64,000 bases of DNA from Candidatus Dormibacteria bacterium. GTDB taxonomy: Bacteria > Chloroflexota > Dormibacteria > Aeolococcales > Bog-877. The position numbers and the translations under genes were made by a program. The stretch is from positions 4,134 to 68,133 of the forward strand of contig JBOHUG010000039.1 in the NCBI GenBank assembly GCA_050734135.1, read 5' to 3'. The first letter of the stretch is position 1; each line of letters opens with the position of its first letter. The notes beneath the pieces are model-generated. The model saw only the letters and a program-made list of their open reading frames with translations. It did no database searches and was not told where the DNA came from. Below, piece by piece: positions 11,782 to 46,824 of this stretch.

Positions 11782-13203
11782 TCACGAAGGCTGAATTGAG
11801 AACTCCGCTCGGAGCCGGGTGACGGCCTCCCGGGCGGCCACGGTGAGCTCCAGAGCCAATCGTCGATCCAGATCGAGTGAGGCGGTTGTCTCGAGCGACT
11901 GCAGGCGCACCTCAAGCAGCTGCAACTGGTCCGCGATCTCGCCGGGAGTCGCCAGGGCCCGGAGGCGGGCCGCGGCTGCGGGGGCGGTTTCGCCCAGCCG
12001 TTTCGCCCGCTGGTAGTCTCCGAACGCCCGGCGGTCGCGGTCGGCGGCGAGCAGCAGTCGTACCGCTGCTTGCCCGGACTCTGAGATCTCTGCTGCCGGC
12101 GCGTGCAGCCGGCAGAGCCCGTCCAGAGCCGCCGCGAGTGCGCCCGTGATCGCAGCCGCCGCCGCGCCACCCGCTGCGTCCCGCGGGGAGAGCATCCGGG
12201 CGACCGTCTCGAGCAGCGACCAGGAGGCGACCGGCCCTGGCTGCAGACCTCCGAGATCCGTCAGGGAGAGCAGAGCCGAAACTGAGGTGATACGGCCGAT
12301 TCCGCCCGGTACCGGCGTCACCCGGGCGGCGCCCGCCGCAGCGGCCGGGGTGACGTCGCCCCGGAGCTGCCCGTCGACCATCGAGGTGCCCACGTCGAGG
12401 ACTGTGGTACCGGGCAGGATCGCATTCGCGGGCATGACCCCGGCGATTCCGATGGCTGAGATCAATATGTCATAGGGGGGTAGTGGATCGACTCCAGCGA
12501 TGTCGCTCTGGATCACCGAGACCTGAGCTCCGGTGGCCAGGAGCCGCTGGGCGATCGGGCGACCGCCGGTCGGACCGTGGCCGACGACCAGAATTCTCGC
12601 TGCGGAGCAATCGATCCCAAGATGAACCAGGGTCGCGAGGCAGGCTTCGGCGACGGGGGTTCCGCGACGACGCCCGTCGGCTGCCGCTGCCAGGGCCGCC
12701 GGGGTGACGGCCTCGACGTCCTTGCTGGCAGGCAGGTGGGCGGCCACCACGCCACCGGGGAGTGATTTGACCGGCTGCACCACCACCACGCCGTTCACGG
12801 TGGGGTCCACCACCAGGGCATCGAGAGCGGTCGGGGTTGTCTCAGCTTGGTCCCGCGGCACGGTCCGGTGCACGACTTCCACGCCCCCGGCGACCGCTTC
12901 CCGTTCCAGGGACCGGGCGAACGAGCCCCCGGCGATGTTGCCCTCCTCGACCACTACTCCCAGTCGGTAGGGGCGCTGGCGCGCCTTCACGCGGCCCGCC
13001 AACCGCCCGCGCAGCTCCTCCAGGAGGGGAGAGAGGTTTACCACCTCGGCCGGGACCAGGTCCGTCACCGACCTATCTCGCGCGTCCTGAGCACTGGAGC
13101 GCCGGGGGAATCCGAGTGTCTCGTGGTCATCACCTCTCCACGACAGCCGATGGGCGGCGACGCCGCGCAGCCGCCCGGTGACGCCAACTAACTGCTGTAC
13201 CAC
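11782..13203 (-). CDS. FolD-like methylene-THF dehydrogenase/cyclohydrolase fused to a C-terminal formimino-THF cyclodeaminase/methenyl-THF cyclohydrolase (FTCD_C/FchA-like) domain
   Basis: N-terminal half aligns with FolD (NAD(P)-binding RILVVGHGPTGGRP, VTPVPGGIGRIT). The C-terminal ~180 aa match the cyclodeaminase fold (LSPRDAAGGAAAAAITGALAAAL). The true start may lie downstream of the first M. Confidence 0.7.
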   Translation of the reverse strand: MVQQLVGVTGRLRGVAAHRLSWRGDDHETLGFPRRSSAQDARDRSVTDLVPAEVVNLSPLLEELRGRLAGRVKARQRPYRLGVVVEEGNIAGGSFARSLEREAVAGGVEVVHRTVPRDQAETTPTALDALVVDPTVNGVVVVQPVKSLPGGVVAAHLPASKDVEAVTPAALAAAADGRRRGTPVAEACLATLVHLGIDCSAARILVVGHGPTGGRPIAQRLLATGAQVSVIQSDIAGVDPLPPYDILISAIGIAGVMPANAILPGTTVLDVGTSMVDGQLRGDVTPAAAAGAARVTPVPGGIGRITSVSALLSLTDLGGLQPGPVASWSLLETVARMLSPRDAAGGAAAAAITGALAAALDGLCRLHAPAAEISESGQAAVRLLLAADRDRRAFGDYQRAKRLGETAPAAAARLRALATPGEIADQLQLLEVRLQSLETTASLDLDRRLALELTVAAREAVTRLRAEFSIQPS

Positions 13204-13522: not shown

Positions 13523-14887
13523 TTGGTCGAGGTTCTAACCCTGGAGACCCCGGAACTCGGGGATCGCACCTATCTCGTCCACGATGGCGATCAGGGAATC
13601 GTCGTCGATCCCCAGCGAGATACCGACCGCGTGCTGGCGCTGGCCGACTCGGCCGGGGTCAAGATCAGTTGCGTGGCGGAGACCCACATCCACAACGACT
13701 ACGTGTCGGGGGGGTGGGCGCTGTCCCAGTCGGTAGGTGCCCGGTACCTGGTGGCCGCTGCCGACGATGTCTCATTTCAACGCCAATCGGTGAGCGAAGG
13801 GGATCGGATCGTTGTCGGCGGGCTCACCTTGAGGACACTGGCGACCCCCGGGCACACCCAGAGTCATCTCTCCTTTCTGCTCTCATCTGGAGGCGGACTC
13901 CGGGCCCTCTTCAGCGGAGGGTCGCTGCTCTATGGCGCCGTGGGCCGCACTGACCTGGTGGCGCCGGAACTCACAGAGCCGCTGGCCCGCGCCCAGCGCC
14001 GCTCAGCGCTCCGCCAGGTCGCCTTGCCGGCGGGCCTCGACCTCTACCCCACCCACGGATTTGGGAGCTTCTGTGCCAGCGGCACAAGCTCGGTGGCCGA
14101 CCCCGGTCACACGATTGGGACCCAGCGCACGACCAACCCTGCCGTGACCGGCGACGAGGAGGGCTTCGTCCGGGCGCTGTTGGCAGGGTACTCCCTCTAC
14201 CCGCGCTACTACGCTCACATGGGTGCTCTGAATCTGGAGGGGGCGGCTGCTCCCGAACTGGGGCTACCTCCGGAAATAGAGATCGCTGAAGTTGCCCGGC
14301 GGATCCGGAACGGGGAGTGGGTGGTCGATCTCCGGACTCGAACCGAGTTCGGGCCGTCCCACATCGTCGGCACGGTGAACTTCCCCACCGGCGAACTGCT
14401 GGCGACCTACGTGGGTTGGGTTGTCCCCTGGGGCGCTCCCCTGACTCTAGTCGGCAGTAGCGCGGAGGCGGTGAGCCGGGCTCGGCGTGATTTGGCTCGC
14501 ATCGGGATCGACTGGCTCGCCGGCTGGTCGAGTGCGCCCCTGGCGGAGCTGCAGGAGAGCCTGGGAAAGTCGTCGTACCGGGTGACCGACTTCCGGGGCC
14601 TGGCCGAGGCGGTGCGCTCCCAGGACGTCCAGATCCTCGATGCGCGTCGACCCGACGAGTGGCACGAGCGGCACATCAAGAACGCGATCAACATCCACCT
14701 ACCCGATCTGCCGACCCGGGTAGACGAGCTGCCCGAGCGACCCATCTGGGTGCACTGCGGCGCCGGCTACCGCGCCGCCGTAGCAGCCAGCCTGCTCGAT
14801 CGGGCGGGCCGCGAAGTGGTGCTGGTGGACGATGACATCGCTCGGCTCGGCGAGGTCGGTCTGGAATTGGTGAGTGGTTCGGAATAG
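13523..14887 (+). CDS. MBL-fold metallo-hydrolase (persulfide dioxygenase-like) fused to two rhodanese domains
   Basis: MBL motif ETHIHNDYVSGG...TPGHT is followed by two rhodanese domains. The first lacks the catalytic Cys. The second has active-site HCGAGYRA. TTG at 13523 sits 6 nt after a perfect AGGAGG. The upstream part of the track ORF overlaps the divergent gene. Confidence 0.75.
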   Translation: MVEVLTLETPELGDRTYLVHDGDQGIVVDPQRDTDRVLALADSAGVKISCVAETHIHNDYVSGGWALSQSVGARYLVAAADDVSFQRQSVSEGDRIVVGGLTLRTLATPGHTQSHLSFLLSSGGGLRALFSGGSLLYGAVGRTDLVAPELTEPLARAQRRSALRQVALPAGLDLYPTHGFGSFCASGTSSVADPGHTIGTQRTTNPAVTGDEEGFVRALLAGYSLYPRYYAHMGALNLEGAAAPELGLPPEIEIAEVARRIRNGEWVVDLRTRTEFGPSHIVGTVNFPTGELLATYVGWVVPWGAPLTLVGSSAEAVSRARRDLARIGIDWLAGWSSAPLAELQESLGKSSYRVTDFRGLAEAVRSQDVQILDARRPDEWHERHIKNAINIHLPDLPTRVDELPERPIWVHCGAGYRAAVAASLLDRAGREVVLVDDDIARLGEVGLELVSGSE

Positions 14888-14925: not shown

Positions 14926-15267
14926 ATGCCTGCCGACTGCCTGTTCTGCCGGATCGTGGCTGGGGAGTTGCCTTCCGACGAGGTTCACCGGGAACCGGGC
15001 ATTCTCGCCTTCAAGGACATCCACCCCGTCGCCGAGACCCATGTCCTGGTGATCCCCGAAAAGCACATCGAGGATTTGCGCCAACTGCGGGCGGAGGACG
15101 CCGGGCTCTGGCTCCGCCTAACCCAGGTGGCCAACGAGGTGGCGTCTGATCTGGGGCACGAGGAGGGCTACCGCTTCTATGTCAGTGTCGGCGCTGCCGG
15201 CGGGCAGACCGTGCCCCATCTTCATATCCACGTGATGGCTGGGAGCATGCGCCGCCTTCCATCCTGA
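14926..15267 (+). CDS. HIT-family hydrolase (histidine triad nucleotide-binding protein)
   Basis: 113 aa with HIT motif HLHIHVMAG and N-terminal CLFCRIV. Confidence 0.9.
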   Translation: MPADCLFCRIVAGELPSDEVHREPGILAFKDIHPVAETHVLVIPEKHIEDLRQLRAEDAGLWLRLTQVANEVASDLGHEEGYRFYVSVGAAGGQTVPHLHIHVMAGSMRRLPS

Positions 15268-15348: not shown

Positions 15349-16542
15349 ATGGCGTTGAGTTCGCGGGAAATGGTCGACCAGGCCCGTCGGGTGGTTGCGG
15401 AGGTAGCGCCCCAGGAGCTGCGGGTGCGATTGGCCAGTGACGGACAGCGTCAGCTGCTCGACGTGCGCGAGCCGGAGGAGGTCGCCCAGGGGGTGATCCC
15501 AGAGGCCGTAGTAATTCCCCGAGGATTTCTTGAGCTGCGCGTGGAATCGGCGATTCCCGATCGGGCCACTCCGATCGCGGTGTACTGCGCCTCCGGAGTG
15601 CGGTCGCTCCTGGCGGCTAGGACACTGCACGCGATGGGGTATTCGGACGTGGTCTCCCTCCAGGGCGGCTACAACGCCTGGAAGGACCAGGGCCTTCCGG
15701 TCACCGTGCCGCACGCCTTCACTTCCGAGCAGCGCGAGCGGTACAGCCGGCACTTCCTCCTCAGCGAGGTGGGCGAAGCTGGTCAGGCCAAGCTGCTCGA
15801 CGCCAAGGTGCTCCTCCTGGGAGCCGGCGGCCTCGGCGCGCCCGTCGCCTATTACCTGGCTGCGGCAGGAGTGGGCACCATCGGACTGGTGGACTTCGAC
15901 CGGGTGGAGCTGAGCAATCTGCAGCGACAGATCGTCCACACCATGGACCGGCTGGGCATGCTCAAGACCGAGTCGGCGGCGATTGCCCTCAGGGCGCTGA
16001 ACCCGGACGTCAAGGTGATTGAGCACAACCTCCGCCTCGACAGCTCCAACGCGGCTGAGCTCTTCGCCCATTACGACATCATCGTGAACGGAAGCGACAA
16101 CTTCCCAACCCGTTACCTTGCCAACGACGTCGCGATTTTCTTGCGCAAGCCGCTGGTCGATGGCGGGATCTTCCGCTTCGAGGGTCAGGTCACGAGCATG
16201 CTCCCCTTCGAGTCGGCCTGCTACCGCTGCCGCTACCCGGCCCCCCCACCGCCTGAGGAGGCGCCCAGTTGCTCCGAGGCGGGCGTGCTCGGAGTTCTGC
16301 CGGGACTGGTCGGACTGGTCCAGGCCACCGAGGTGGTGAAGATGATCCTGGGCATCGGCGAGACATTGAGTGGGCGGCTGCTGCACGTCGATGCTCTGAC
16401 TATGGAGTTCAACACCTTCCGGCTGCGCCGGGACCCGGAGTGCCCGGTCTGCGGCGAGCATCCCTCGATCACCGAACCGATCGACTACGAAGGGTTCTGC
16501 CTCAACCCCAGCTTGACGGTATCGGCGGCAGCGGTAGCCTGA
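15349..16542 (+). CDS. E1-like ThiF/MoeB adenylyltransferase with N-terminal rhodanese domain (MoeZ-like, reversed domain order)
   Basis: N-terminal rhodanese with active-site YCASGVRS. Central ThiF fold with Gly-rich nucleotide loop LLLGAGGLGAPVAYYLAAAG. C-terminal CxxC...CxxC Zn motif (CYRC...CPVC). Confidence 0.85.
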   Translation: MALSSREMVDQARRVVAEVAPQELRVRLASDGQRQLLDVREPEEVAQGVIPEAVVIPRGFLELRVESAIPDRATPIAVYCASGVRSLLAARTLHAMGYSDVVSLQGGYNAWKDQGLPVTVPHAFTSEQRERYSRHFLLSEVGEAGQAKLLDAKVLLLGAGGLGAPVAYYLAAAGVGTIGLVDFDRVELSNLQRQIVHTMDRLGMLKTESAAIALRALNPDVKVIEHNLRLDSSNAAELFAHYDIIVNGSDNFPTRYLANDVAIFLRKPLVDGGIFRFEGQVTSMLPFESACYRCRYPAPPPPEEAPSCSEAGVLGVLPGLVGLVQATEVVKMILGIGETLSGRLLHVDALTMEFNTFRLRRDPECPVCGEHPSITEPIDYEGFCLNPSLTVSAAAVA

Positions 16543-16627: not shown

Positions 16628-16843
16628 GTGAAGCAGGCCACGATCTCGCTCGACGACCTCATTACGGCGGTCGAGACCGCGCGGGACAAGGTGATGGCTG
16701 ACGAGGTCCGCTCCCTGGTCAAGTTCGGCATCCCCAAGGCAATGGCCCAGCAGATGGTCGCAGCCCGGTTCCAGCAGAAGGTCGGAGGAGAAGAGGGCGA
16801 GGGAGGGGAGACTGAGACCCCGGCCTGGCCCGACATGAGCTGA
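16628..16843 (+). CDS. small hypothetical protein (71 aa) with internal KVGGE motif and acidic C-terminal tail
   Basis: Strong GC3 codon bias supports coding. GTG start has no SD. A promoter-like TTGGAC-15nt-TAACAT lies immediately upstream, consistent with a leaderless transcript. No recognised family. Confidence 0.5.
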   Translation: MKQATISLDDLITAVETARDKVMADEVRSLVKFGIPKAMAQQMVAARFQQKVGGEEGEGGETETPAWPDMS

Positions 16844-16861
16844 CCCGGGTGCTCCGGCGCC

Positions 16862-16880
16862 CCCGCTAGCTCCCGCTAGC
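16862..16880 (+). repeat. tandem direct repeat CCCGCTAGC x2, each containing palindrome GCTAGC
   Basis: Read directly in the 50-nt spacer between the 71-aa gene and the HExxH gene. Confidence 0.6.
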
Positions 16881-16893
16881 GGACAGGGGCACC

Positions 16894-17976
16894 GTGGAGG
16901 AATTGGCCCCCCTCAGCCCCTATCGCTCAGACCGGCAGTACGCTCGGCTGGAGACTTACCGGCGCTTGGGTTTGCCCGACGCCACCTGGGCGGCCGAGCA
17001 GTTCAGTCTGCGAATCCATGTCTCCCAGGACGGCCCGCCAGGCGGGGAGAAGCGGGCGCGCGAGGTCTGGGAGACGGTGGACCGACTCCCGCTCCAGGTC
17101 AAGGACGTCCTGCGAGGGGTGGTCGACGAGGTGCGGCTGGACCCCGAAGATAGGTTTCCCGTCGATACGCTGGGGACCTGGCGGGATGGAACCATGCGGC
17201 TCAACCGGGATTGGTCGCTGATCCCGGCGCTGCGCAGTGGGGGCTGGCACCGGGATCTTGGCTACGATTTGGTGCGAGCCACCTTGATCCACGAGTCCGG
17301 CCATGCCCTGGTCGAGGACCCGAGAGGCGGGGTCCGGCTCCGCGACACAGTCGCTCTGATCGCCGCGTCCGGCTGGTTACCGCACCCCCTTACCGACCCG
17401 GTGCCGTATGGAACTGTCGGCCGCCAGGTTTCCAATCTCACTGACTACTACCTGACTCGGCTACAGCAGCTCGATCCGAGTTGGGATAGCGAACTCTCCC
17501 TCGGTAGTCCGTCGCTGCCGCCGCCATCGCAGTTGGACCGTGATGTGATGCTGGAGGTGAGCACCTTCAACCGGCTGCGCACCAGGGACCGTGGTTCCCT
17601 GGGTCTGCAGGGACCGGACCAGCTGATCCGACACCTGCGCCGGGAGGAGCCGAACCGGATGAAAAGGGAACTGGCGGCTAGGGGCCTGGTGCTGGAGGAT
17701 GTAGACGCGACGTTGCGACGGCGCCGGGGCATCTCCCTGTATGCGGAAGTCGCCATCTCCGAGACGCCGGCGGAGATCTTCCGCTGCATCCACGCTCCCT
17801 TCACCAGGGCGGAGCACGGCCGCCCCGCCTTAGATGAGGGCGAGCGCGTGCTCTTGGAACCGTGGCGCACCGCGGACCGGGCGGTTGGGGCGCGCCGACT
17901 GGCGCTGGCCCCCGAGCGACCCTGGGAGGCGCTCCAGTTGGTCCGTCGGGGCGTCGGCCGGGAGCTCGGGAGGTGA
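16894..17976 (+). CDS. hypothetical HExxH-motif protein (putative zinc metallopeptidase-like)
   Basis: 360 aa, GC3-biased. Single LIHESGHALVED motif resembles zincin/SprT-type active sites. No other family recognised. Confidence 0.6.
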   Translation: MEELAPLSPYRSDRQYARLETYRRLGLPDATWAAEQFSLRIHVSQDGPPGGEKRAREVWETVDRLPLQVKDVLRGVVDEVRLDPEDRFPVDTLGTWRDGTMRLNRDWSLIPALRSGGWHRDLGYDLVRATLIHESGHALVEDPRGGVRLRDTVALIAASGWLPHPLTDPVPYGTVGRQVSNLTDYYLTRLQQLDPSWDSELSLGSPSLPPPSQLDRDVMLEVSTFNRLRTRDRGSLGLQGPDQLIRHLRREEPNRMKRELAARGLVLEDVDATLRRRRGISLYAEVAISETPAEIFRCIHAPFTRAEHGRPALDEGERVLLEPWRTADRAVGARRLALAPERPWEALQLVRRGVGRELGR

Positions 17977-18269
17977 CGGGGCTGGAGGAACGATTCCTGT
18001 TGCGGGAGATAAGCAGCGGACGGTCTGCCGAGGCGTGGGGCTTCCCAGTCCAACTCGCCGGTGACGCCGAGCTCTGCCAGCTGATCAGGGGGTATCTGAA
18101 CGATCCGATCGCGGAACTGGGTCCTTCGCTGGACCCGGAAACAGGGGAGCGCGGTACCAGAGTTCTGACCCTGGAGCCCGGCGATCCCGGCTGGCTCCAG
18201 GGCTGCCTGCGGCGATCCGCCCAGGAGCTCAAACTCCGCCTCAGCGAGCCCCCTCTCAGTGGCCGCTGA
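17972..18269 (+). CDS. small hypothetical protein (98 aa), translationally coupled to the HExxH protein
   Basis: GTG start overlaps the upstream TGA (GTGA). A GGAGG SD lies inside the upstream gene's 3' end. GC3-biased. Confidence 0.5.
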
Positions 18270-18348
18270 ATTGCCCCCCGCAAGGGGTTGTCCAGCCGTC
18301 GGCCAGCCACTATGTTTCTTGTCTCGGTAGCTAACACGGGGGCGCCAA

Positions 18349-18960
18349 GTGACCGGTTGGGGACGGTCGCGTCGGATCGCACTTATGGTGGGGTCGGGTT
18401 TGGTGGTGGTCTGGGCTGCCGCCTGCGCTAGTGCCCCCGCCAGGATTCCGGCTGCGTCACCGACGCCCACCGCGGCTCCCACCACGATCGCGCCCGGGGT
18501 GGCTGTGAATCCCTCGGAATTGATTCTGCCGCCTTATACCGTCTCGACCACGAATCCGCTGCCGGCGGGCGTCTCGGCCAAACGGGTGGTACGCGATGTC
18601 GTGGTGGATGACCTCATAGAGAATGCCGCTATCCAGAAACGCGATCCGACTCTGCTCACATACTCGGACTCGGGCAATCTCCTGCAGTCTGAACGACAGG
18701 AAATTGTAACCAACAAATCTGGGGGCATCACGGTCCTGAGCATCCGGGACTCCATCACCAACATTGAAGTGGGAAGCAAGGCCGATCCAAACAACTCGTC
18801 TGTTCAATCTGCAGCAATCGTGCAAGGCACAGAAGTACGCGAGCAGCGCATTCGCTCCGGCGTCCGTACTCGTAGTTCACACCAATTCCAAGTTCTCCTA
18901 TGGTTGGTGTGGTCGCAAGCTAACTTGCGGTATTTGCTGTGCGATACGGCCGACGCGTAA
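18349..18960 (+). CDS. putative lipoprotein, hypothetical
   Basis: Signal peptide with lipobox-like VVWAAAC. C-terminal ~40 aa fall in a low-GC patch and look aberrant. Confidence 0.45.
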   Translation: MTGWGRSRRIALMVGSGLVVVWAAACASAPARIPAASPTPTAAPTTIAPGVAVNPSELILPPYTVSTTNPLPAGVSAKRVVRDVVVDDLIENAAIQKRDPTLLTYSDSGNLLQSERQEIVTNKSGGITVLSIRDSITNIEVGSKADPNNSSVQSAAIVQGTEVREQRIRSGVRTRSSHQFQVLLWLVWSQANLRYLLCDTADA

Positions 18961-19886
18961 TTCTGCGCGTCCTCGTTGCGACGATTAGTCTTCCACTCGC
19001 CATATGTAGCGCTCATGCCGACTTTCCGGACACCCGCCCGACTGTCGGGTGCCAGGCATCTGCTGGTGAATTGACGTTCGGCGGGCAGTGCGTCGGCATC
19101 CAGGGGCCGTCGGCGCCCACACAACCTGCGCAGGGTCACAGCTGGATCGTGACGCCACCGACCGTCCAGGCGTCGTGTGCTCCGTACATCGCCACAGAGT
19201 GGGCCGCCGCTGCGGGGGTTGACAGCGGGAAAATCGGCGGCGCCGTGTGGACTGTGGACGGCCAGCGCATTCCTGTCATCTACTCAACGCCTTTGACCGA
19301 CTGGGGCTGGCGGTACGCGGTGACGTGCGGAACTCCGGGAGTCACCAGATTTGTTGGGTTGGTCTCTGAGCCGCGAACTCCGAGTCCTTGTTCAGCCCAA
19401 ACTGCCACGCAAGACTGTGTGCCCGGTCTCGATCCAAGCTCCTTCTTGGCTGCCGTAAAAGGTGAAGTTCCGCGGGAGAGCATCGAGGCCTCCCCTCGAA
19501 AGCTTGGCGTCGTCGGGGTTTCAGTCGGGGTCCAAGTGGTGCCCGCGCCAGAGCCCCAGTACGCGACGATCAACGTTGCGGTACCTGATGCTGGTGACGG
19601 AGATCCGGGAGAAACCCTTCATGTGGTGTGGGTCGTCGAGGCCGCACCGGAGTCCGTGTCGTGGACTTGGCCAGATGGGTCACGGTCCCAAATTAGCAAG
19701 TGGATCCCGCAGACTTACGAAGAGGGTGGTTTCGTGGGCGCAAGTCTCGTGTACGGCGTGACCGCAACCGGATTCTGGTCGGACGGGTTGACCGTCCATG
19801 ACCTTCCGACAGTTTCGGTGGGCACCATCCCAATCACGGCGCAGCTGGCATATTCCGTTGAGCAGGTCCAGCCCGGGTTGGGGTAG
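18939..19886 (+). CDS. secreted hypothetical protein
   Basis: N-terminal signal peptide (LVATISLPLAICSAHA). Cys-rich N-terminal region. No family recognised. Confidence 0.5.
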   Translation: MRYGRRVILRVLVATISLPLAICSAHADFPDTRPTVGCQASAGELTFGGQCVGIQGPSAPTQPAQGHSWIVTPPTVQASCAPYIATEWAAAAGVDSGKIGGAVWTVDGQRIPVIYSTPLTDWGWRYAVTCGTPGVTRFVGLVSEPRTPSPCSAQTATQDCVPGLDPSSFLAAVKGEVPRESIEASPRKLGVVGVSVGVQVVPAPEPQYATINVAVPDAGDGDPGETLHVVWVVEAAPESVSWTWPDGSRSQISKWIPQTYEEGGFVGASLVYGVTATGFWSDGLTVHDLPTVSVGTIPITAQLAYSVEQVQPGLG

Positions 19887-19935
19887 CCGGGGCGCTCCTT
19901 CGGGCGTTCGATAGACTGGGCGCCCGAGTCGGAGC

Positions 19936-20012
<77 letters not shown>

Positions 20013-20109
20013 CGCCGATAGACTTTCGGGGAACCGTCCCGGGCCGGCGGACCTACGGTCGGGACCCGCTGGGCGCCGACCATCGCCCAAATGCGATCCT
20101 TAGCCTCCA

Positions 20110-20931
20110 ATGCGTAACCCGGGCAGCAGAGAGCTCCGCCGCCGCCAGGCTCGACTGGAGAACCAGCAGCGATCCGCCGTCCGCGAGCAGACGCCGGCGC
20201 CGCGGCGCGCTGACATGATGCGCCGTGGTGGCCTACTCGAAGGGCTCGCACCCCGAGTTGTCACCCGGCTGACCCTGGCGGTCACGGTCGTCAGCCTGGT
20301 CATGATCGCGGCCGCCGTGTTAGGGCTGTTGGTGGAGATCGGCCAGCAGGATCTGCTCTTGGGGGTGGTGGTACTGCTGGTGGCCCTGGTCATCACGGGG
20401 ATTGTCGGGTCGGTAGTGGCCCCCGCCATGCGGGCCGCCCGCCGGGACCGCCGCCAGCCTGCGCGCAACATCCAAGGGCCGCTGATGGGCGCCAGTTTGG
20501 TCTCGCCGACCCCGGGGCTGGCCACGGTGGCAATCACCGTTGGCAAGAATGTGGAGCAGTTCAGGGTCCGCCCCGAACTCTTTGAGAAGCTTCGAGTGGG
20601 TGGGGCGACTGTGGTGGGGCTGACGGTGACTCCCAGCCTGAACTACGTCCAGGTGCTGAACATCATTCGCCGTGATCGGTTGGCCACCATGACCACCCCA
20701 CCCGTCTCCCGGGCGATCAGGATCTCGGTCTGGCTGCCCCTCTTCTCGGTCGGGGCGATCTCAGTAGCCCTGGCCCTGGGGTGCCTAATAGGCGCCCTGC
20801 TGCCGCTGGCGCACAGCGCCATCCATCCGCTCGTGACCGTGCTGCTAGCGATCCTTCTGGCGGGTGGTGTGGCGCTCTTCACCCGCTGGTACGGTGGTCG
20901 TCTTATCAAGGAGCTCGGACTCGAGCAGTAG
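20110..20931 (+). CDS. hypothetical integral membrane protein
   Basis: Multiple hydrophobic TM segments. Start uncertain (a later MMRRGG is possible). Confidence 0.55.
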   Translation: MRNPGSRELRRRQARLENQQRSAVREQTPAPRRADMMRRGGLLEGLAPRVVTRLTLAVTVVSLVMIAAAVLGLLVEIGQQDLLLGVVVLLVALVITGIVGSVVAPAMRAARRDRRQPARNIQGPLMGASLVSPTPGLATVAITVGKNVEQFRVRPELFEKLRVGGATVVGLTVTPSLNYVQVLNIIRRDRLATMTTPPVSRAIRISVWLPLFSVGAISVALALGCLIGALLPLAHSAIHPLVTVLLAILLAGGVALFTRWYGGRLIKELGLEQ

Positions 20932-35593: not shown

Positions 35594-36230
35594 GAGGAGA
35601 TGGAGGTTGAATATGAATCGATACCATCAGCGACTCTGTCGATCCCCGAGATGGGCGGACTTTGTCACCGGAGAGCTGCTGCCCGAGATCCTGCAGGGCG
35701 TCGAGCTCGGGCCGCGGGCCCTGGAGCTGGGACCCGGTTACGGGGCCAGCACCAGAGGACTGCTCGGTCGAGTCTCGGAGCTCGTGGCTCTCGAGAGCGA
35801 CCCGGAGTTGGTGCGGCGCCTGCAGCGCGAATTGGGGGCGTCGGTGACTGTCGTTCTGGGGGACGCCACCCAGATGCCGTTTGCCAGCTCCTCGTTCTCG
35901 GCGGTGGTGTGTTTCACGATGTTGCACCACCTGCGCTCCCGGCGAGCGCAGGACCGACTCTTCGGCGAAGTCGCGCGGGTGCTGGAGCCGGGCGGACTGT
36001 TCGTGGCTCGCGATAGCAGCGGCGGCTGGCGATTTCGGCTGATTCACCTGGGGGATGTCTTCACGCCAGTCGACTCCCGGGACCTGGATCAGCGCCTAGT
36101 CCGAGCTGGGCTGGAGTCGGTGGAGATCACGGCGACCCCGTGGTCAGTTGAGATCCGGGCACGCCGTCCCGAGCCGTCCGACCGGGTGCTCCAAGGGTCC
36201 TCGAATGCGATGGCAGGAGGCGAATCGTGA
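35592..36230 (+). CDS. class I SAM-dependent methyltransferase
   Basis: Motif I ALELGPGYG and post-I/II motifs. Divergent from the TetR gene. Confidence 0.7.
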   Translation: MRRWRLNMNRYHQRLCRSPRWADFVTGELLPEILQGVELGPRALELGPGYGASTRGLLGRVSELVALESDPELVRRLQRELGASVTVVLGDATQMPFASSSFSAVVCFTMLHHLRSRRAQDRLFGEVARVLEPGGLFVARDSSGGWRFRLIHLGDVFTPVDSRDLDQRLVRAGLESVEITATPWSVEIRARRPEPSDRVLQGSSNAMAGGES

Positions 36231-36952
36231 GCGACTCCCGCCTACGAGAGTCAATCGCCGCCATGGTTCAGTTGGTGACCGGCGCCGAGGAATGCGCGAT
36301 GCTGGCCACCCGCGCAGAGGACCAGGAACGCGCGAGCGGTCCGGAGGCATGGTCGATCTCGGCCCTGGTCGCGCACAATTCCGAATTCAGGTCCCAGCAG
36401 GTCACCAGGCTCGGAGCGGTCATTGATCGCTCCACCCCGCCCAACTTCTCCGAAATAGACCACACCTCGCTGGAGGTCTATGCGAGGTTCTCGGCTCTGA
36501 CCGCCGACCAGGTGCTCGCCGGATGCCGCTCCACAACGACCGAGCTGGTGCAGCTTCTTTGGCAACTCACCGACGAGGACCTGACTGACCCGGCGCGGAA
36601 TCCCTGGCTGCGGGGTCGGCCGCTTTGGCTGCAAGTTGTGGCGCGCGGCTTCTGGCACCCCAGCGGTCATCTAGGTGAGTACTGGCTCAGCCGGGGACTC
36701 CCAGAGAAGGCCGTCCGGCTGCATGCCGCCGGTGTCGCCCTGGCGGAGGCAGTTCAGCTGCCCGGTGCGGCGCTGGGGATGGCCCGGTATTCATTGGCTT
36801 GCGCCAAGTCGAGGACGGGGCACTGCGAGGAGGCGCTCGCGGAGATCGTCCAAGCGATCAACGGCAACCCCGACCTTGCCCAGAATGCCGCTCGGGACCC
36901 GGACCTGGAGCCGGTTAGGGCGCTGCCCGGCTGGCCGTGCTCGGCCAATTAG
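36227..36952 (+). CDS. DinB-superfamily protein (mycothiol maleylpyruvate isomerase N-terminal-like)
   Basis: 241 aa with helical DinB_2-like N-terminus. ATGA-type overlap with the upstream methyltransferase. Confidence 0.6.
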   Translation: MSDSRLRESIAAMVQLVTGAEECAMLATRAEDQERASGPEAWSISALVAHNSEFRSQQVTRLGAVIDRSTPPNFSEIDHTSLEVYARFSALTADQVLAGCRSTTTELVQLLWQLTDEDLTDPARNPWLRGRPLWLQVVARGFWHPSGHLGEYWLSRGLPEKAVRLHAAGVALAEAVQLPGAALGMARYSLACAKSRTGHCEEALAEIVQAINGNPDLAQNAARDPDLEPVRALPGWPCSAN

Positions 36953-36962
36953 ATTCGCTTCG

Positions 36963-37952
36963 ATGACCACTGACCTGATCCTGGTCGCCCTGGCGCTGGG
37001 ATTCTGCGCCAGCATCGGCGCTCACTACACCGGAGCCTGCATGGGGATGCCACACGCCCTGGGTCTGGTGAGCTCGCGCCGTGCCCTTTGGATGATGGCG
37101 CCGCTCGCCTTCCTCGGCGCGGCTCTAGCCACCCACTCGGTGGAGGAGCGAGTGGGGTCGGGCTTGCTGGTGCACCGCTTGACGACTACCGGTGAGATCC
37201 TGGTGGTGGGTCTGGCATTCGGGCTCACCATCGGGTACAACCGGCTCAGGATCCCCACCTCCACCATTCAGCTACTGGTTTTTTCCTTGGTGGGAGTCGC
37301 ACTCGGCTCGCATTCCGGTGTCCGCTGGCCAGCGATCGGCAGCCTGGTCTTGCTCTGGGTCCTGGCTCCCCTGGTCGCGGTCGGGCTCGGGTTTCTCTCG
37401 ACCCACCTCCTGGACTGGCTGCGCGATCTCAGCTCACTTTCGTTCAGCGCTCGCGCTCCCCAACTCTGGCGCCTCGGCGGTTCGGCACTGGTCCTGATTG
37501 GCTTGGCGGCCTCCTTTGCCATGGGAGCCAACGACGTCGCCAATGCGACCGGCGCTCTGGTCGGAGCTCGGTTGCTGGCGGCGACCCCGGCCGGGGTGCT
37601 CGGCGGGTTGGGTCTGGCGGCCGGAGTGCTGATCTGGGGCAAGCCACTACTGGGACGGGTGGCCTTCGCCATCGTCCGCGTCGATCAGACGATGGCGGCG
37701 GCCGCCCAGTTGGTGCAGGCGGCCGTGGTGCTCGCTGCGGTGAGTGTCGGCTACTTCACCTCACTCAATCAGGCGCTGGTCGGGGCGATGGCCGGTGCTG
37801 GCCTCGCCCGGGACCGGGAGACGGTCCAGCGGACGGTGCTGCTCGGAATTCTGCGCGGGTGGCTCGCCGGTCCCGCTTCGGGTCTGCTCCTGGGCTTCGG
37901 ATTCAGCTCCGCGCTGCTGGCCGTCTTCGGCGGTCGGCTCCTAGGCACCTAG
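36963..37952 (+). CDS. pit: inorganic phosphate transporter, PiT family
   Basis: Multi-TM protein with duplicated GANDVANA motif. Start MTTDLILVALA. Confidence 0.75.
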   Translation: MTTDLILVALALGFCASIGAHYTGACMGMPHALGLVSSRRALWMMAPLAFLGAALATHSVEERVGSGLLVHRLTTTGEILVVGLAFGLTIGYNRLRIPTSTIQLLVFSLVGVALGSHSGVRWPAIGSLVLLWVLAPLVAVGLGFLSTHLLDWLRDLSSLSFSARAPQLWRLGGSALVLIGLAASFAMGANDVANATGALVGARLLAATPAGVLGGLGLAAGVLIWGKPLLGRVAFAIVRVDQTMAAAAQLVQAAVVLAAVSVGYFTSLNQALVGAMAGAGLARDRETVQRTVLLGILRGWLAGPASGLLLGFGFSSALLAVFGGRLLGT

Positions 37953-37961
37953 AAAAAGTGA

Positions 37962-37992
37962 GGGCGGGGTTAACCTGGTGGTCACCCCGCCC
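37962..37992. terminator. GC-rich hairpin between convergent pit and groEL (putative bidirectional terminator)
   Basis: GGGCGGGGT-13 nt-ACCCCGCCC. No U-tract, as is typical in high-GC genomes. Confidence 0.5.
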
Positions 37993-38025
37993 CGCGCCAA
38001 TCCAGCCCTGCGGCTAGTCAGATAC

Positions 38026-39633
38026 TCAGTAGTCGGGCATCGCGGGAGCCGGTGCTCCCTTCTTCTCGGGGATGTCCGTGATCAGAGATTCGGTGGTCAG
38101 CAGCAACCCGGCGATCGAGGCCGCATTCTGCACCGCCGAGCGGGTCACTTTGGTGGGGTCGATGATCCCCGCCTTGACCATGTCCACGAACTTACCGGTT
38201 GCCGCGTCGTAGCCCTGCCCTACGGGAAGGCTACGGACTCGCTCCACAATCACCGAGCCCTCGGCGCCGGCATTGTTCGCGATCTGGCGTGCAGGCTCCT
38301 CGAGCGACCGCCGCACGATGGTCACCCCGATCTGCTCGTCGCCCTGCAGCTTGACCTTATCCAAGGCGGTCTGGGCCAGTAGCAACACAGTGCCACCTCC
38401 GGGAACGATCCCCTCCTCGACCGCGGCGCGGGTGGCCGACACGGCGTCTTCCATCCGGTGCTTGCGCTCTTTGAGCTCGGTTTCGGTGGCCGCACCTACC
38501 TTGATCACCGCCACCCCGCCGGCCAGCTTGGCCAAGCGCTCCTGGAGCTTCTCCTTGTCCCAGTCGCTGGTGGACTTATCGATCTCAGCCTTGATCTGCT
38601 CGATCCGGCCCTTGATCGCCTCGCTCTTGCCGGCACCCTCGACTAGGGTGGTGTCGTCCTTGGTCACCTTTACCCGGCGGGCGTGGCCCAGCTGGTCCAG
38701 TTGCACCGAGTCCAACTTCAGACCCAGCTCCTCGCTGATCACAGTGCCCCCGGTGAGCACCGAGATGTCCTGGAGCATCGCCTTGCGGCGGTCGCCGAAG
38801 CCCGGGGCCTTGACGGCAACCGCGGTGAAGATTCCGCGGATCTTGTTGACGATCAGGGTGGCCAGCGCTTCGCCATCCACGTCCTCGGCGATGATCAGAA
38901 GTGGCTTGCCGCTTTGGTGGATCTTCTCCACCACCGGCAGTAGATCGGCGATCGCCGAGATCTTCCGATCGGTGATCAGGATGTAGGGGTCCTCCAAGAC
39001 CGCCTCCATGGCCTGAGCGTTGGTGACCAGGTAGGCGCTGATGTAGCCCTTGTCGAACTGCATCCCCTCGACCAGGTCCAGTTCGGTCTCGATCCCCTTC
39101 GACTCCTCGACGGTGATCACGCCATCCTTGCCGACCTTCTCCATCGCGTCGGCCACCGTCTCGCCGATCGCCGGGTCAGCGGCGGAGATGGAAGCCACCT
39201 GGGCGATCTTCTCGCGCTCGCTGATCGGCACGGAGTGCTTTTTGATCTCCTCGACCACCGCGTCGACGGCCTTCTGGATGCCGGCCTTGACCTGCACCGG
39301 ATTGGCTCCGTGAGCCACGTGGCGCAGCCCCTCGTTGATCATCGCGGAGGCCAAGACCGTAGCGGTCGTGGTGCCGTCCCCGGCGATGTCATTAGTCTTG
39401 CTCGCCACCTCCTTGACCAGCTGCGCGCCCATGTTCTCGAAGGGGTCTTCGAGTTCGATCTCCTTGGCGATCGTCACGCCGTCGTTGGTGATCGTGGGGC
39501 TGCCGAATTTCTTGTCCAGAACCACGTTGCGGCCCTTGGGCCCGATCGTGATTCGGACCGCGTCCGCGACCTTGTCGACTCCGCGCTTTAGGGCCGACTG
39601 GGCCTCTGTGTCGAATAGCAGTTGTTTGGGCAT
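38026..39633 (-). CDS. groEL: chaperonin GroEL (60 kDa)
   Basis: 535 aa, full-length Cpn60 ([12 protein letters not shown] etc.). No groES adjacent, so a GroEL2-type standalone copy. Confidence 0.95.
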
Positions 39634-39726
39634 TCGTCTCTCCTGTTGTCCCCATCCAGACAGCTGAGGTTGCGCCGCTCATGTTAGCACTCAGGCCCCC
39701 CGAGTGCTAGCAGCCCCCTGGGCCAA

Positions 39727-40602
39727 GTGCCAGGGTTCAAGACGCCCTCGCTCCCTCGCCGCGATCATGGGTGGATGGCAGGTGAGAGCAGTTCGGCCGG
39801 GAGACTCTTCCAGCCCGCCTCGGAACCGGTTGCGGTCGATCAGGTGCGGAGTTTCCTGCTGGCGCAGGGGTGGGCGGGTCTAGCCGCCGGGGAGCACCTA
39901 CGGCGGCTGGAGGCGGCCGGGGAGGCACCTAATCGCGTGCTCTGGTGGGTTCCCGGGCGAGCTGGCGAAGTTCGGGCAGCAGCGCTGCTGCACGAGGGGC
40001 TCCTCGGGATTCTGATTTCCTCCGGGGAGGAGGGATCGGCGGCGCTCGAGCTGCTCCGGGTCAACCGGGCGTCCATCGACCGAATCTCAGTGATGGATGG
40101 GCCGGTGCCGTACTCCGGGTTGGACGAGTTTACCCAGTACCGGCGTGAGCTCGCGGTCGCTACCAGGCTGCGATTCCCGACCGGCGACCTGCCCCCCACC
40201 CGGCTGGCCCGCAGTAGCGACGGAGAACAGCTCTTTCGGGTCTATCAGCACGTCAGCTGGATGAGCAAGGAGAGTCCTCAGGCTTGGCGGGAGCGAATTC
40301 AGGTGCAGCGGAGCTGGGTGGCGGAGCTGGAAGGCCAGGTGGTGGCGGCGGCCCGCTGGACGATGTCGTTCGGGCAGTGGGTGGAGGTCGGCGGGGTGGC
40401 GACCCATCCCGACTTCCGGCACCGGCAGGCTGGGTCGGCGGTCACCAGGGCGGCGGCGGCGGCGGCACTCGCCGAGGGACGTCAGGTGGTCCTTCGCTAC
40501 GGCGACCCCGCGCTGGCCAGCCTCTACCACCCACTCGGTTTCGAGCATGTCGGGCGGGAGATGGTGTTCTATCGGAAGAGCCGAGCCGAGCCAGACGTAT
40601 GA
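39727..40602 (+). CDS. GNAT-family N-acetyltransferase (putative)
   Basis: C-terminal acetyl-CoA-binding-like VEVGGVATHPDFRHRQAGSAVTRAAAAAAL. Confidence 0.55.
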   Translation: MPGFKTPSLPRRDHGWMAGESSSAGRLFQPASEPVAVDQVRSFLLAQGWAGLAAGEHLRRLEAAGEAPNRVLWWVPGRAGEVRAAALLHEGLLGILISSGEEGSAALELLRVNRASIDRISVMDGPVPYSGLDEFTQYRRELAVATRLRFPTGDLPPTRLARSSDGEQLFRVYQHVSWMSKESPQAWRERIQVQRSWVAELEGQVVAAARWTMSFGQWVEVGGVATHPDFRHRQAGSAVTRAAAAAALAEGRQVVLRYGDPALASLYHPLGFEHVGREMVFYRKSRAEPDV

Positions 40603-45685: not shown

Positions 45686-46807
45686 ATGGCTACCCGGGTG
45701 GTTCACGCCGGCAACGGCCCCGAAGGCGAGAGCCAGGCGCTGGTCCCTCCCTTGTCGATGTCGGTGGTGTTCCAGCACGGCAACTCGCGCGGCTACTCCT
45801 ATGGACGGGACCACAACGAGAACTGGGAGCGCCTCGAGGGAGCGCTCACAGAACTCGAGGACGGCTGCGGCGCGGTTGCCTTCGGATCGGGGATGGCCGC
45901 GATCTCCGCCCTGGTCGAGAGCTGCGGCATCGGCCGCAAGGTCGTGGTGGCGCAGGACGCCTACATCGGGACCCGGGAGTTGCTCCGCCACCTGGCCGAG
46001 GTGGGGCAGTGCCGGACCGAGTGGGTGGACGCCACCGACCTGGAATCGGTTCGGCGCGCCTGTCAGGGAGCGGCCCTGCTGATGATCGAGTCATTGGGCA
46101 ATCCGCTGCTCACGGTGACCGACATCCAGAGCTGTGCCGCCGTGGCTCGCGAGGCGGGCGCGATCACGGTGGTAGACAACACTTTCACCACTCCACTTTT
46201 GGTGCGCCCGCTGCGCTTAGGTGCCGATGCGGTTGTGCACTCGGTATCCAAATACCTCGGCGGGCACAGTGACCTGATGCTAGGGATGACCATCACAAAC
46301 AGCAGCGATTTACTGCCAAAACTGCGATATCAGCGAACCAACTCCGGAGCCATCCCCGGTCAGCTTGAGACCTGGTTGGCGCTCCGAGGCCTGCGTACCC
46401 TCGATGTGCGTCTGCGGCGCCAGATTGCCACCGCCGCGGCTCTGGCGGTGCGCTTGCAGAAGACACCGGGAGTTCTGCGAGTGCACTACCCGGGGCTGGT
46501 TGAGCATCCGCAGCATGAGCTGGCGACCCGTCAGATGTCCGGCGGGTTTGGCGGCATGCTCTCAGTTGAGCTGGACTGTGATGCGGAGACCGCGGAGCAG
46601 GTTTGTACGGCCACCAAAGTCTGGACCAATTCGACCAGTCTGGGGTCGGTCGAGTCACTGCTGGAGCGCCGGGCCCGCTGGGCCGGTGATGAGTACCTGC
46701 CAGCGGCCCTAATCCGGCTCTCAGTTGGGGTTGAGGACGAGGAGGATTTGTTCCAGGATCTAATCCAGGCACTGGCAGTCGCCGGACTCGCATGGTCGGC
46801 GAACTAG
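45686..46807 (+). CDS. cystathionine gamma-synthase / PLP-dependent trans-sulfuration enzyme (MetB/MetC/MetZ family)
   Basis: Cys/Met-metabolism PLP fold with the lysine motif VHSVSKYLGGHSD. Start at MATRVVHAG. Confidence 0.8.
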   Translation: MATRVVHAGNGPEGESQALVPPLSMSVVFQHGNSRGYSYGRDHNENWERLEGALTELEDGCGAVAFGSGMAAISALVESCGIGRKVVVAQDAYIGTRELLRHLAEVGQCRTEWVDATDLESVRRACQGAALLMIESLGNPLLTVTDIQSCAAVAREAGAITVVDNTFTTPLLVRPLRLGADAVVHSVSKYLGGHSDLMLGMTITNSSDLLPKLRYQRTNSGAIPGQLETWLALRGLRTLDVRLRRQIATAAALAVRLQKTPGVLRVHYPGLVEHPQHELATRQMSGGFGGMLSVELDCDAETAEQVCTATKVWTNSTSLGSVESLLERRARWAGDEYLPAALIRLSVGVEDEEDLFQDLIQALAVAGLAWSAN

Positions 46808-46824
46808 CCTGAGGTAGCGCCGAG

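Follow-up and report, generated by a model that had tools for sequence, protein, structure and literature searches.

The subject of this study is a gene on a 64,000-nucleotide (nt) stretch of DNA, here called the window, from Candidatus Dormibacteria bacterium (NCBI GenBank assembly GCA_050734135.1, contig JBOHUG010000039.1, positions 4,134 to 68,133 of the forward strand). The gene encodes an E1-like enzyme of 397 amino acids (aa), in which a rhodanese domain stands ahead of the ThiF/MoeB adenylation domain (hereafter the E1). We found that the E1 is a member of the established rhodanese-first family NF006444/PRK08762, and that this domain order, although real, is common and has been known and modelled before. 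Furthermore, the E1 is very probably a functional sulfur-carrier-protein adenylyltransferase/sulfurtransferase, which would use the chemistry of MoeZ, MOCS3, and Uba4, but with a rhodanese domain attached N-terminally.

The comparison with curated protein models showed that the E1 matched NF006444/PRK08762 (387 positions) with 537.8 bits against a cutoff of 449, and that residues 6-386 were aligned to profile positions 4-385 in one stretch. For the MoeZ model NF005902, which is rhodanese-last, the score was no more than 370 bits (cutoff 647), and the match was split into two non-collinear stretches. The E1 is outside the MoeZ/MOCS3/Uba4 family, because it fails both the defining domain order and the model cutoff. 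In addition, it passed the cutoff of PRK05690 for the MoeB subfamily (283.6 vs 266) and failed those of TIGR02355 for E. coli-type moeB (211.5 vs 376.55), TIGR02356 for ThiF (219.4 vs 275.25), and NF047750 for UbaA (328.1 vs 450 bits). NF006444 carries the label "molybdopterin-synthase adenylyltransferase MoeB", and the same name was given to an identical protein (P0001) on deposit from a Candidatus Dormibacteria metagenome-assembled genome (MAG), GCA_973417115.1. For the rhodanese-first family, however, the product name MoeB is annotation only.

An earlier note, made from the sequence alone, had described an E1-like ThiF enzyme with the domain order opposite to that of MoeZ, MOCS3, and Uba4, and this description is correct: the Pfam matches place the rhodanese domain ahead of ThiF, both far over their cutoffs. 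The same note had considered that an upstream frameshift or a domain-boundary error might be the cause. This can be ruled out, since the homologs are collinear with the E1 from Met1. A frameshift, a fusion of two genes, or an annotation artefact was also rejected by us as the source of the domain order, because the gene is a single uninterrupted open reading frame (ORF). It starts with ATG, and a GGAG sequence lies 11 nt upstream of the start. The identical 397-aa gene was called in two independent assemblies (the NCBI MAG and the Logan assembly of SRR27067711), the alignment of 63 homologs, down to 65% identity, runs from Met1 and crosses the domain junction without gaps, and collinear copies exist in complete genomes. 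An artefact of assembly or annotation is thus extremely improbable.

The rhodanese-first order was found to be widespread. The best 120 database matches shared 65-100% identity with the query, and all of them carried both domains in collinear order, with a query coverage of 84-100% (mostly 97-100%) in a single local alignment. They are annotated as MoeB or as "adenylyltransferase/sulfurtransferase". When 1.84 billion representatives were searched exhaustively, 5,868 relatives were found at E <= 1e-30; among the best 150 clusters at 50% identity, the rhodanese domain came first in 54, last in 74, and was absent in about 22. Moreover, a scan of species-representative genomes gave at least 80 loci, nearly all collinear with the query over approximately residues 1-384, at 49-65% identity. 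In the matches listed, collinear copies occurred in at least 10 lineages, namely Myxococcota, Thermodesulfobacteriota, Chloroflexota, Nitrospinota, Actinomycetota, Acidobacteriota, Gemmatimonadota, Rokubacteria, MAGs labelled Verrucomicrobiota, and Gammaproteobacteria of the Xanthomonadales type. The complete genomes with such copies include Corallococcus exercitus (Myxococcota), and Conexibacter and Salinilacustrithrix (Actinomycetota). Other named rhodanese-first members come from Planctomycetota, Burkholderia cenocepacia, and Teredinibacter.

The earlier note had taken the architecture to be unusual. This view is refuted, for the curated NF006444 models exactly the rhodanese-ThiF order and is passed end to end by the E1. 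The note itself had named common annotation of this form within the lineage as the finding that would speak against it, and the best 120 homologs, mostly labelled Dormibacteria/Dormibacterota, are indeed collinear. As a discovery, the architecture of the E1 carries little weight, since it has its own curated model, is annotated routinely, and occurs in many phyla. As a separate observation, some rhodanese-first E1s have an extra N-terminal extension of 100-255 residues ahead of the rhodanese domain; they include P0125 (634 aa, Teredinibacter waterburyi WP_188152452.1), P0245 (609 aa), P0223 (538 aa), and P0123 (486 aa).

The coordinates of the gene, its domains and motifs, and two neighbouring genes are given in Table 1.

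Table 1. Features of the E1 gene and of two neighbouring genes, in window coordinates
Feature	Position	Strand	Basis
Rhodanese-ThiF (N-type) adenylyltransferase/sulfurtransferase gene, complete, stop codon included	15349..16542	+	ORF list; NF006444 match; identical P0001
Rhodanese domain, residues 21-113	15409..15687	+	Pfam PF00581, E 2.9e-19
Rhodanese active-site loop C80-A-S-G-V-R85-S86, with predicted persulfide-carrying Cys80	15586..15606	+	Conservation
Short inter-domain linker, residues 114-131, into first adenylation-domain helix (R131-Y-S-R134-H)	15688..15741	+	Gap between Pfam boundaries; pLDDT ~87-89
ThiF/MoeB adenylation domain, residues 132-367	15742..16449	+	Pfam PF00899, E 3.1e-79, profile 1-238/238
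Gly-rich nucleotide-binding motif G158-A-G-G-L-G163	15820..15837	+	Conservation; identical to Uba4 in alignment
First zinc motif C291-Y-R-C294	16219..16230	+	C291, C294 invariant
Crossover-loop Cys308 (A-P-S-C-S-E-A-G)	16270..16272	+	>=90% kept in N-type proteins; aligned with Uba4
Second zinc motif C365-P-V-C368	16441..16452	+	C365 invariant across N-type; C368 invariant in close homologs
C-terminal tail, residues 369-397 (29 residues), conserved …PSITEPIDYEGFC384	16453..16539	+	Shared with relatives
HIT-family gene, 113 aa, upstream of E1; context only, probably no functional part	14926..15267	+	Pfam HIT, E 1.7e-23
MBL-fold + rhodanese gene, 454 aa, CstB/PRF-like persulfide-dioxygenase-rhodanese fusion; context only	13523..14887	+	Pfam Lactamase_B + Rhodanese

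The active cysteine had been placed in the segment YCASGVRS, and this assignment was borne out. The segment corresponds to residues 79-86, with the C-x4-R loop formed by C80-ASGV-R85. In 20 rhodanese-first (N-type) proteins of 38-67% identity, C80 was invariant and R85 was kept in at least 90%, and in the 63 close homologs both residues were invariant. Of the nucleotide-binding motif, G158 and G160 were invariant in the N-type proteins, and G161, L162, and G163 were kept in at least 90%. The helix with R131 and R134, D182/D184, the SNLQRQ segment, and D250-N251 were also conserved. Identities between the E1 and Uba4 span the ATP site and the crossover loop, where C308 was aligned with the cysteine of "SCGEAG" in C. 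thermophilum Uba4. Uba4 Cys202 is the cysteine that forms a thioester (PMC7527816), and by this alignment Cys308 is its predicted equivalent. All residue classes that the known chemistry calls for are present in the E1 and are conserved.

The earlier note had also stated that the protein ends with two CxxC zinc motifs. Both motifs are there, but the protein continues beyond the second one with a conserved tail. This tail is a trait of the adenylation-domain subtype and no relic of a lost domain, because it is common to rhodanese-last and rhodanese-less relatives. In Uba4, the equivalent residues at the start of the linker lie against the adenylation domain, where the zinc is bound (PMC7527816).

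The AlphaFold2 model, built with the 63 homologs, was confident, with a predicted local distance difference test score (pLDDT) of 86.9 and a predicted template modelling score (pTM) of 0.71. The rhodanese domain had a pLDDT of about 86-96, and the model was weak only in the crossover loop and in the last 12 residues; the low values in the crossover loop are consistent with flexibility of this part. In a Foldseek comparison, the adenylation domain was superimposed on E. coli ThiF and MoeB with template modelling (TM) scores of 0.94-0.96 and a root-mean-square deviation of 1.3-1.9 Å. In rhodanese-first enzymes, about 10-18 residues separate the persulfide domain from the first adenylation helix, and there is no long C-terminal linker.

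We compared the E1 with the known systems. With NF006444/PRK08762, it agrees in domain order, length (a profile of 387 positions vs 397 aa), and motifs, and no structural difference was seen; the difference is that the E1 gene in Dormibacteria has no adjoining carrier or molybdenum cofactor (Moco) gene. MoeZ/MoeZR of Mycobacterium and Streptomyces, human MOCS3, and fungal Uba4 have the same two domains in the order ThiF then rhodanese. They share with the E1 the adenylation subtype, including the crossover-loop cysteine and the …PTITELIDYEAFC tail, and presumably the chemistry (PMC3227635, PMC7527816). However, the rhodanese domain is N-terminal in the E1 and is attached C-terminally via a linker in these enzymes, the two rhodanese domains are only distantly similar (52 bits), and the regulating C-terminal linker of Uba4 is a mere stub in the E1. 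E. coli MoeB and ThiF (PDB 1JW9, 1ZUD/1ZFN) show a nearly identical adenylation fold, both CxxC zinc motifs, and 38-40% identity. Unlike the E1, they have no fused rhodanese and receive sulfur from separate proteins, and the E1 fails their equivalog cutoffs. The adenylation domain is also similar to Haloferax UbaA, the SAMP-activating E1 (328 bits), whereas UbaA has no rhodanese domain.

On the basis of these likenesses, we propose the following reaction for the E1. The ThiF/MoeB domain, probably as a zinc-stabilised homodimer, would bind ATP and a small beta-grasp carrier of the MoaD/ThiS/CysO type ending in Gly-Gly, and would adenylate the C-terminus of the carrier. Meanwhile, a persulfide would be loaded on Cys80 by a cysteine desulfurase, or from a low-molecular-weight persulfide or thiosulfate. 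This persulfide would then attack the acyl-adenylate, or a thioester on the crossover-loop Cys308, and reduction of the resulting acyl-disulfide would release the carrier thiocarboxylate. The reaction cycle of Uba4 has been described (PMC7527816), and MoeZR is reported to sulfurate MoaD1, MoaD2, and CysO (PMC3227635). The proposal is also favoured by the carrier genes and class-V aminotransferase genes that recur near rhodanese-first E1 genes in other phyla, and by the sulfur genes close to the E1 gene in Dormibacteria. Since the gene stands alone and no carrier gene is nearby, the E1 probably acts on one or more carriers whose genes lie elsewhere, for Moco, cysteine, thiamine, or tRNA thiolation, as does mycobacterial MoeZR. 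A stand-alone E1 serving distant carriers seems to us the most economical reading.

Several results weigh against this proposal. Genes for a carrier, MoaE, ThiG, CysM, or a JAMM peptidase were found neither in the 64-kb window nor near the nine Dormibacterota-type loci examined. A profile search with 11 carriers that are linked to rhodanese-first E1s in other lineages gave, among its best 120 matches, mostly Solirubrobacterales and no Dormibacterota. The sulfur-gene neighbours of the E1 gene are variable inserts in a conserved backbone and do not form a fixed operon. Furthermore, no experimentally characterised rhodanese-first member was found in the searchable literature, and no PDB entry spans both domains in the rhodanese-ThiF order (TM score relative to the query at most 0.59). 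Because of these last two results, we infer the activity, with its catalytic steps, the dimer, and the identity of the carrier, from homology to MoeZR, MOCS3, and Uba4.

The window was also searched for carriers in other ways. Small ORFs in all six frames were scanned for a Gly-Gly at or close to their end, and no credible carrier emerged from the window. Pfam annotation of the remaining window genes gave no Moco, thiamine, CysM, or JAMM gene and only housekeeping functions, including thioredoxin, arginyl-tRNA synthetase, GroEL, transhydrogenase, trehalose synthesis, and MMPL. The 71-aa ORF at 16628-16843 (…KVGGEEGEGGE…) was considered as a cryptic Gly-Gly carrier and rejected, since its ortholog in locus L005 reads …KVAGEDGEVAE… and the protein looks helical, not beta-grasp.

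In other lineages, carrier genes do adjoin the rhodanese-first E1 gene. A MoaD-family/SAMP1-like protein of about 90 aa, ending in …LPAMAGG (plus 0-5 residues), is encoded downstream on the same strand with a median gap of 61 nt, and genes for a cysteine synthase and a JAMM peptidase often come next. BLAST clustering found this carrier at 26 of 84 rhodanese-first loci, and phmmer at 21 of 80. By lineage, the linkage was seen in 14 of 37 loci of Actinomycetota, 6 of 9 of Chloroflexota, and 1 of 2 of Thermodesulfobacteriota, and it was absent in the loci of Myxococcota, Gammaproteobacteria, and Nitrospinota and in the nine Dormibacterota-type loci. For instance, the complete Conexibacter genome has the order E1 (NF006444, 565 bits), carrier of the MoaD family (SAMP1 model, 64.4 bits vs a cutoff of 60), cysteine synthase (cysKM, 344.1 bits vs a cutoff of 344.15), and desampylase-like JAMM peptidase. 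This order is an arrangement of the CysO-CysM-Mec+ type, which was catalogued by Iyer et al. 2006 (Table 1 rows 4b/4c; PMC1779556). The gene neighbourhoods in Actinomycetota and Chloroflexota thus point to cysteine pathways of the CysO type, and not to the function in the name MoeB.

Many of the linked carriers have 1-7 extra residues after Gly-Gly, such as …AMAGGAA, …AMAGGAGETA, and …AMAGGSAAATGS; the loci concerned, with the carrier downstream of or next to the E1 gene, are L011, L041, L052, L061, L065, L073, L075, L076, and L079. Such extensions are consistent with carriers that the adjacent JAMM peptidase must trim before they can be activated. Three other kinds of gene were observed near rhodanese-first E1 genes. 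A Sir2-family deacylase gene stands immediately upstream at 9 loci of other phyla (for example, L035 5095-5859) with a median gap of 78 nt, a class-V aminotransferase of the cysteine-desulfurase type is present at 8 loci (for example, L057 439-1716), and an Rrf2 regulator at 7 loci (for example, L051 4679-5206).

These neighbourhoods bear on two narrower assignments of the Dormibacteria enzyme. According to one, it is the E1 of a CysO-CysM-Mec+ type cysteine pathway, which would thiocarboxylate a CysO-like carrier and pass the sulfur to cysteine synthase. The carrier, cysteine synthase, and JAMM genes directly following the rhodanese-first E1 gene in Actinomycetota, Chloroflexota, and Thermodesulfobacteriota, in agreement with operon classes 4b/4c of Iyer et al. 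2006 (PMC1779556), speak for it, and so does the position of the Dormibacteria gene beside sulfate-assimilation or persulfide-handling genes. However, the partner genes are not near the E1 gene in the window or in any Dormibacterota-type locus examined, and the sister clade of the query has no such linkage either. We consider this assignment rather unlikely for the query.

The other assignment is a dedicated MoeB, which activates only MoaD for molybdopterin synthesis. It is in line with the label of NF006444 and the passed cutoffs of NF006444 and PRK05690, and with the gene standing alone, without cysteine-pathway genes, in Myxococcota, in Gammaproteobacteria, and in the nearest relatives of the query. 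Nevertheless, no Moco gene (moaA/C/D/E, moeA, mogA) is present in the window and none recurs across about 80 rhodanese-first loci, where the recurrent neighbours are instead the MoaD-family carrier, the cysteine synthase, and the JAMM peptidase. In addition, the E. coli-type moeB equivalog TIGR02355 was failed, and the rhodanese-fused MoeZR serves more than one carrier (PMC3227635). A dedicated MoeB is similarly doubtful in our opinion.

The resemblance of the linked genes to the SAMP system raises the question of whether the E1 acts mainly in ubiquitin-like conjugation (SAMPylation or the TtuB type) and not in sulfur transfer. The SAMP1 cutoff is reached by carriers encoded beside rhodanese-first E1s in other phyla (64.4 vs 60), the adjoining peptidase resembles desampylase, Cys308 is conserved, and the adenylation domain scores 328 bits with the UbaA model. 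However, the UbaA cutoff (450) and the desampylase cutoff (130) were both failed, the latter at 68-75 bits, and the cysteine synthase encoded in these operons suggests a biosynthetic role. The window has neither conjugation machinery nor a carrier gene, and a fused rhodanese that is catalytically intact by sequence favours the formation of a thiocarboxylate. Conjugation as the main function is very unlikely.

The result of phylogenetic analysis placed the Dormibacterota enzymes with other rhodanese-first enzymes. A first neighbor-joining (NJ) tree of ThiF domains, in which the query fell among rhodanese-last sequences, was rejected as a sampling artefact. For the second NJ tree, seven Dormibacterota homologs and 28 genome sequences were added (170 taxa, 244 columns, 100 bootstraps). 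In this tree, the Dormibacterota enzymes formed one clade in 100 of 100 replicates, and their sister group was rhodanese-first in 87 of 100 replicates. The members of the sister group were Myxococcales, Thermodesulfobacteriota, Nitrospinaceae, a proteobacterial MAG, and P0121. The second tree did not unite all rhodanese-first enzymes in one clade; the largest clade of at least 90% purity held about 20 of 73, and the N-terminal fusion could have had one origin or several. Taken alone, the rhodanese domain reached 114 bits with NF006444; the MoeZ model, at its C-terminal rhodanese, gave 52 bits, and an unrelated rhodanese family gave about 50. These scores speak neither for nor against an origin of the E1 by simple circular permutation of MoeZ.

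Dormibacteria are an uncultured soil phylum, and the E1 may be a general activator of sulfur carriers there. Such a role would be relevant for reconstructing their cofactor and cysteine metabolism. The earlier note had suggested that the domain order may imply another geometry of persulfide delivery or another partner. A further idea combines two parts. The N-terminal rhodanese might reach the carrier C-terminus by a route unlike that of Uba4 and MoeZ, for example from the partner subunit and without linker gating, and the E1 might activate every sulfur carrier of Dormibacteria by itself, fed by the neighbouring persulfide-dioxygenase-rhodanese or sulfate-assimilation genes. Taken jointly, the two parts are speculative, and we regard the combination as quite improbable.

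At or above 70% identity, the loci of Dormibacteria share a conserved backbone, which consists of a Mur ligase, an alcohol dehydrogenase (ADH), a FolD-like protein, a variable slot, HIT, the rhodanese-ThiF gene, genes of about 72 aa and about 360 aa, and, further on, S6-SSB-S18. In loci of about 67% identity, nothing of this backbone is left. The variable slot holds the CstB/PRF-like gene in the window, genes for a 3'-phosphoadenosine 5'-phosphosulfate (PAPS) reductase and an ATP-sulfurylase/adenosine 5'-phosphosulfate (APS) kinase in the 73%-identical locus L005, and nothing in L091. The pattern resembles an exchange of sulfur genes at a single position of the chromosome, and suggests that the E1 locus is a sulfur-metabolism neighbourhood.

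The HIT gene adjoins the E1 gene in L001, L002, L005, L007, and L089, an opposite-strand amidase gene lies between them in L091, and HIT is absent in L003, L008, and L090. HIT as an obligate partner of the E1 was thus weakened, given the intervening amidase and the loss of linkage at about 67% identity. For the metallo-beta-lactamase (MBL)-fold rhodanese protein, the relatives in PDB were 3tp9 (5e-56), 3r2u, BpPRF 5ve3, and ETHE1 4chl. Its C-terminal rhodanese loop, HCGAGYR, looks active by its residues, and its metal motif is H-I-H-N-D-Y vs the usual HxHxDH.

Some other genes in the window were observed. The FolD-like protein (11782-13203, minus strand) has about 428-473 aa vs the usual approximately 285, and 422-429 aa in related loci. 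The NAD(P)-binding domain is clearly recognised (77 bits), the catalytic domain scores 23.5 vs a Pfam cutoff of 32.8, and there is an extra C-terminal region of about 150 aa. Downstream of the E1 gene, at 16628-20931 on the plus strand, there are conserved ORFs of 71, 360, 98, 191, 315, and 273 aa without a Pfam or NCBIfam match, of which at least those of 71 and 360 aa have syntenic counterparts in L005, L007, L089, and L091. The 360-aa protein has an HExxH motif (LIHESGHAL), and by this motif it may be an undescribed zinc metallopeptidase. Finally, the AT skew of the window was -0.17 to -0.20 at 36001-40000, whereas most of the remaining window stayed within about +/-0.09, with a weaker dip of -0.14 at 46001-48000; a minus-strand GroEL gene (38026-39633) lies inside the region 36001-40000.

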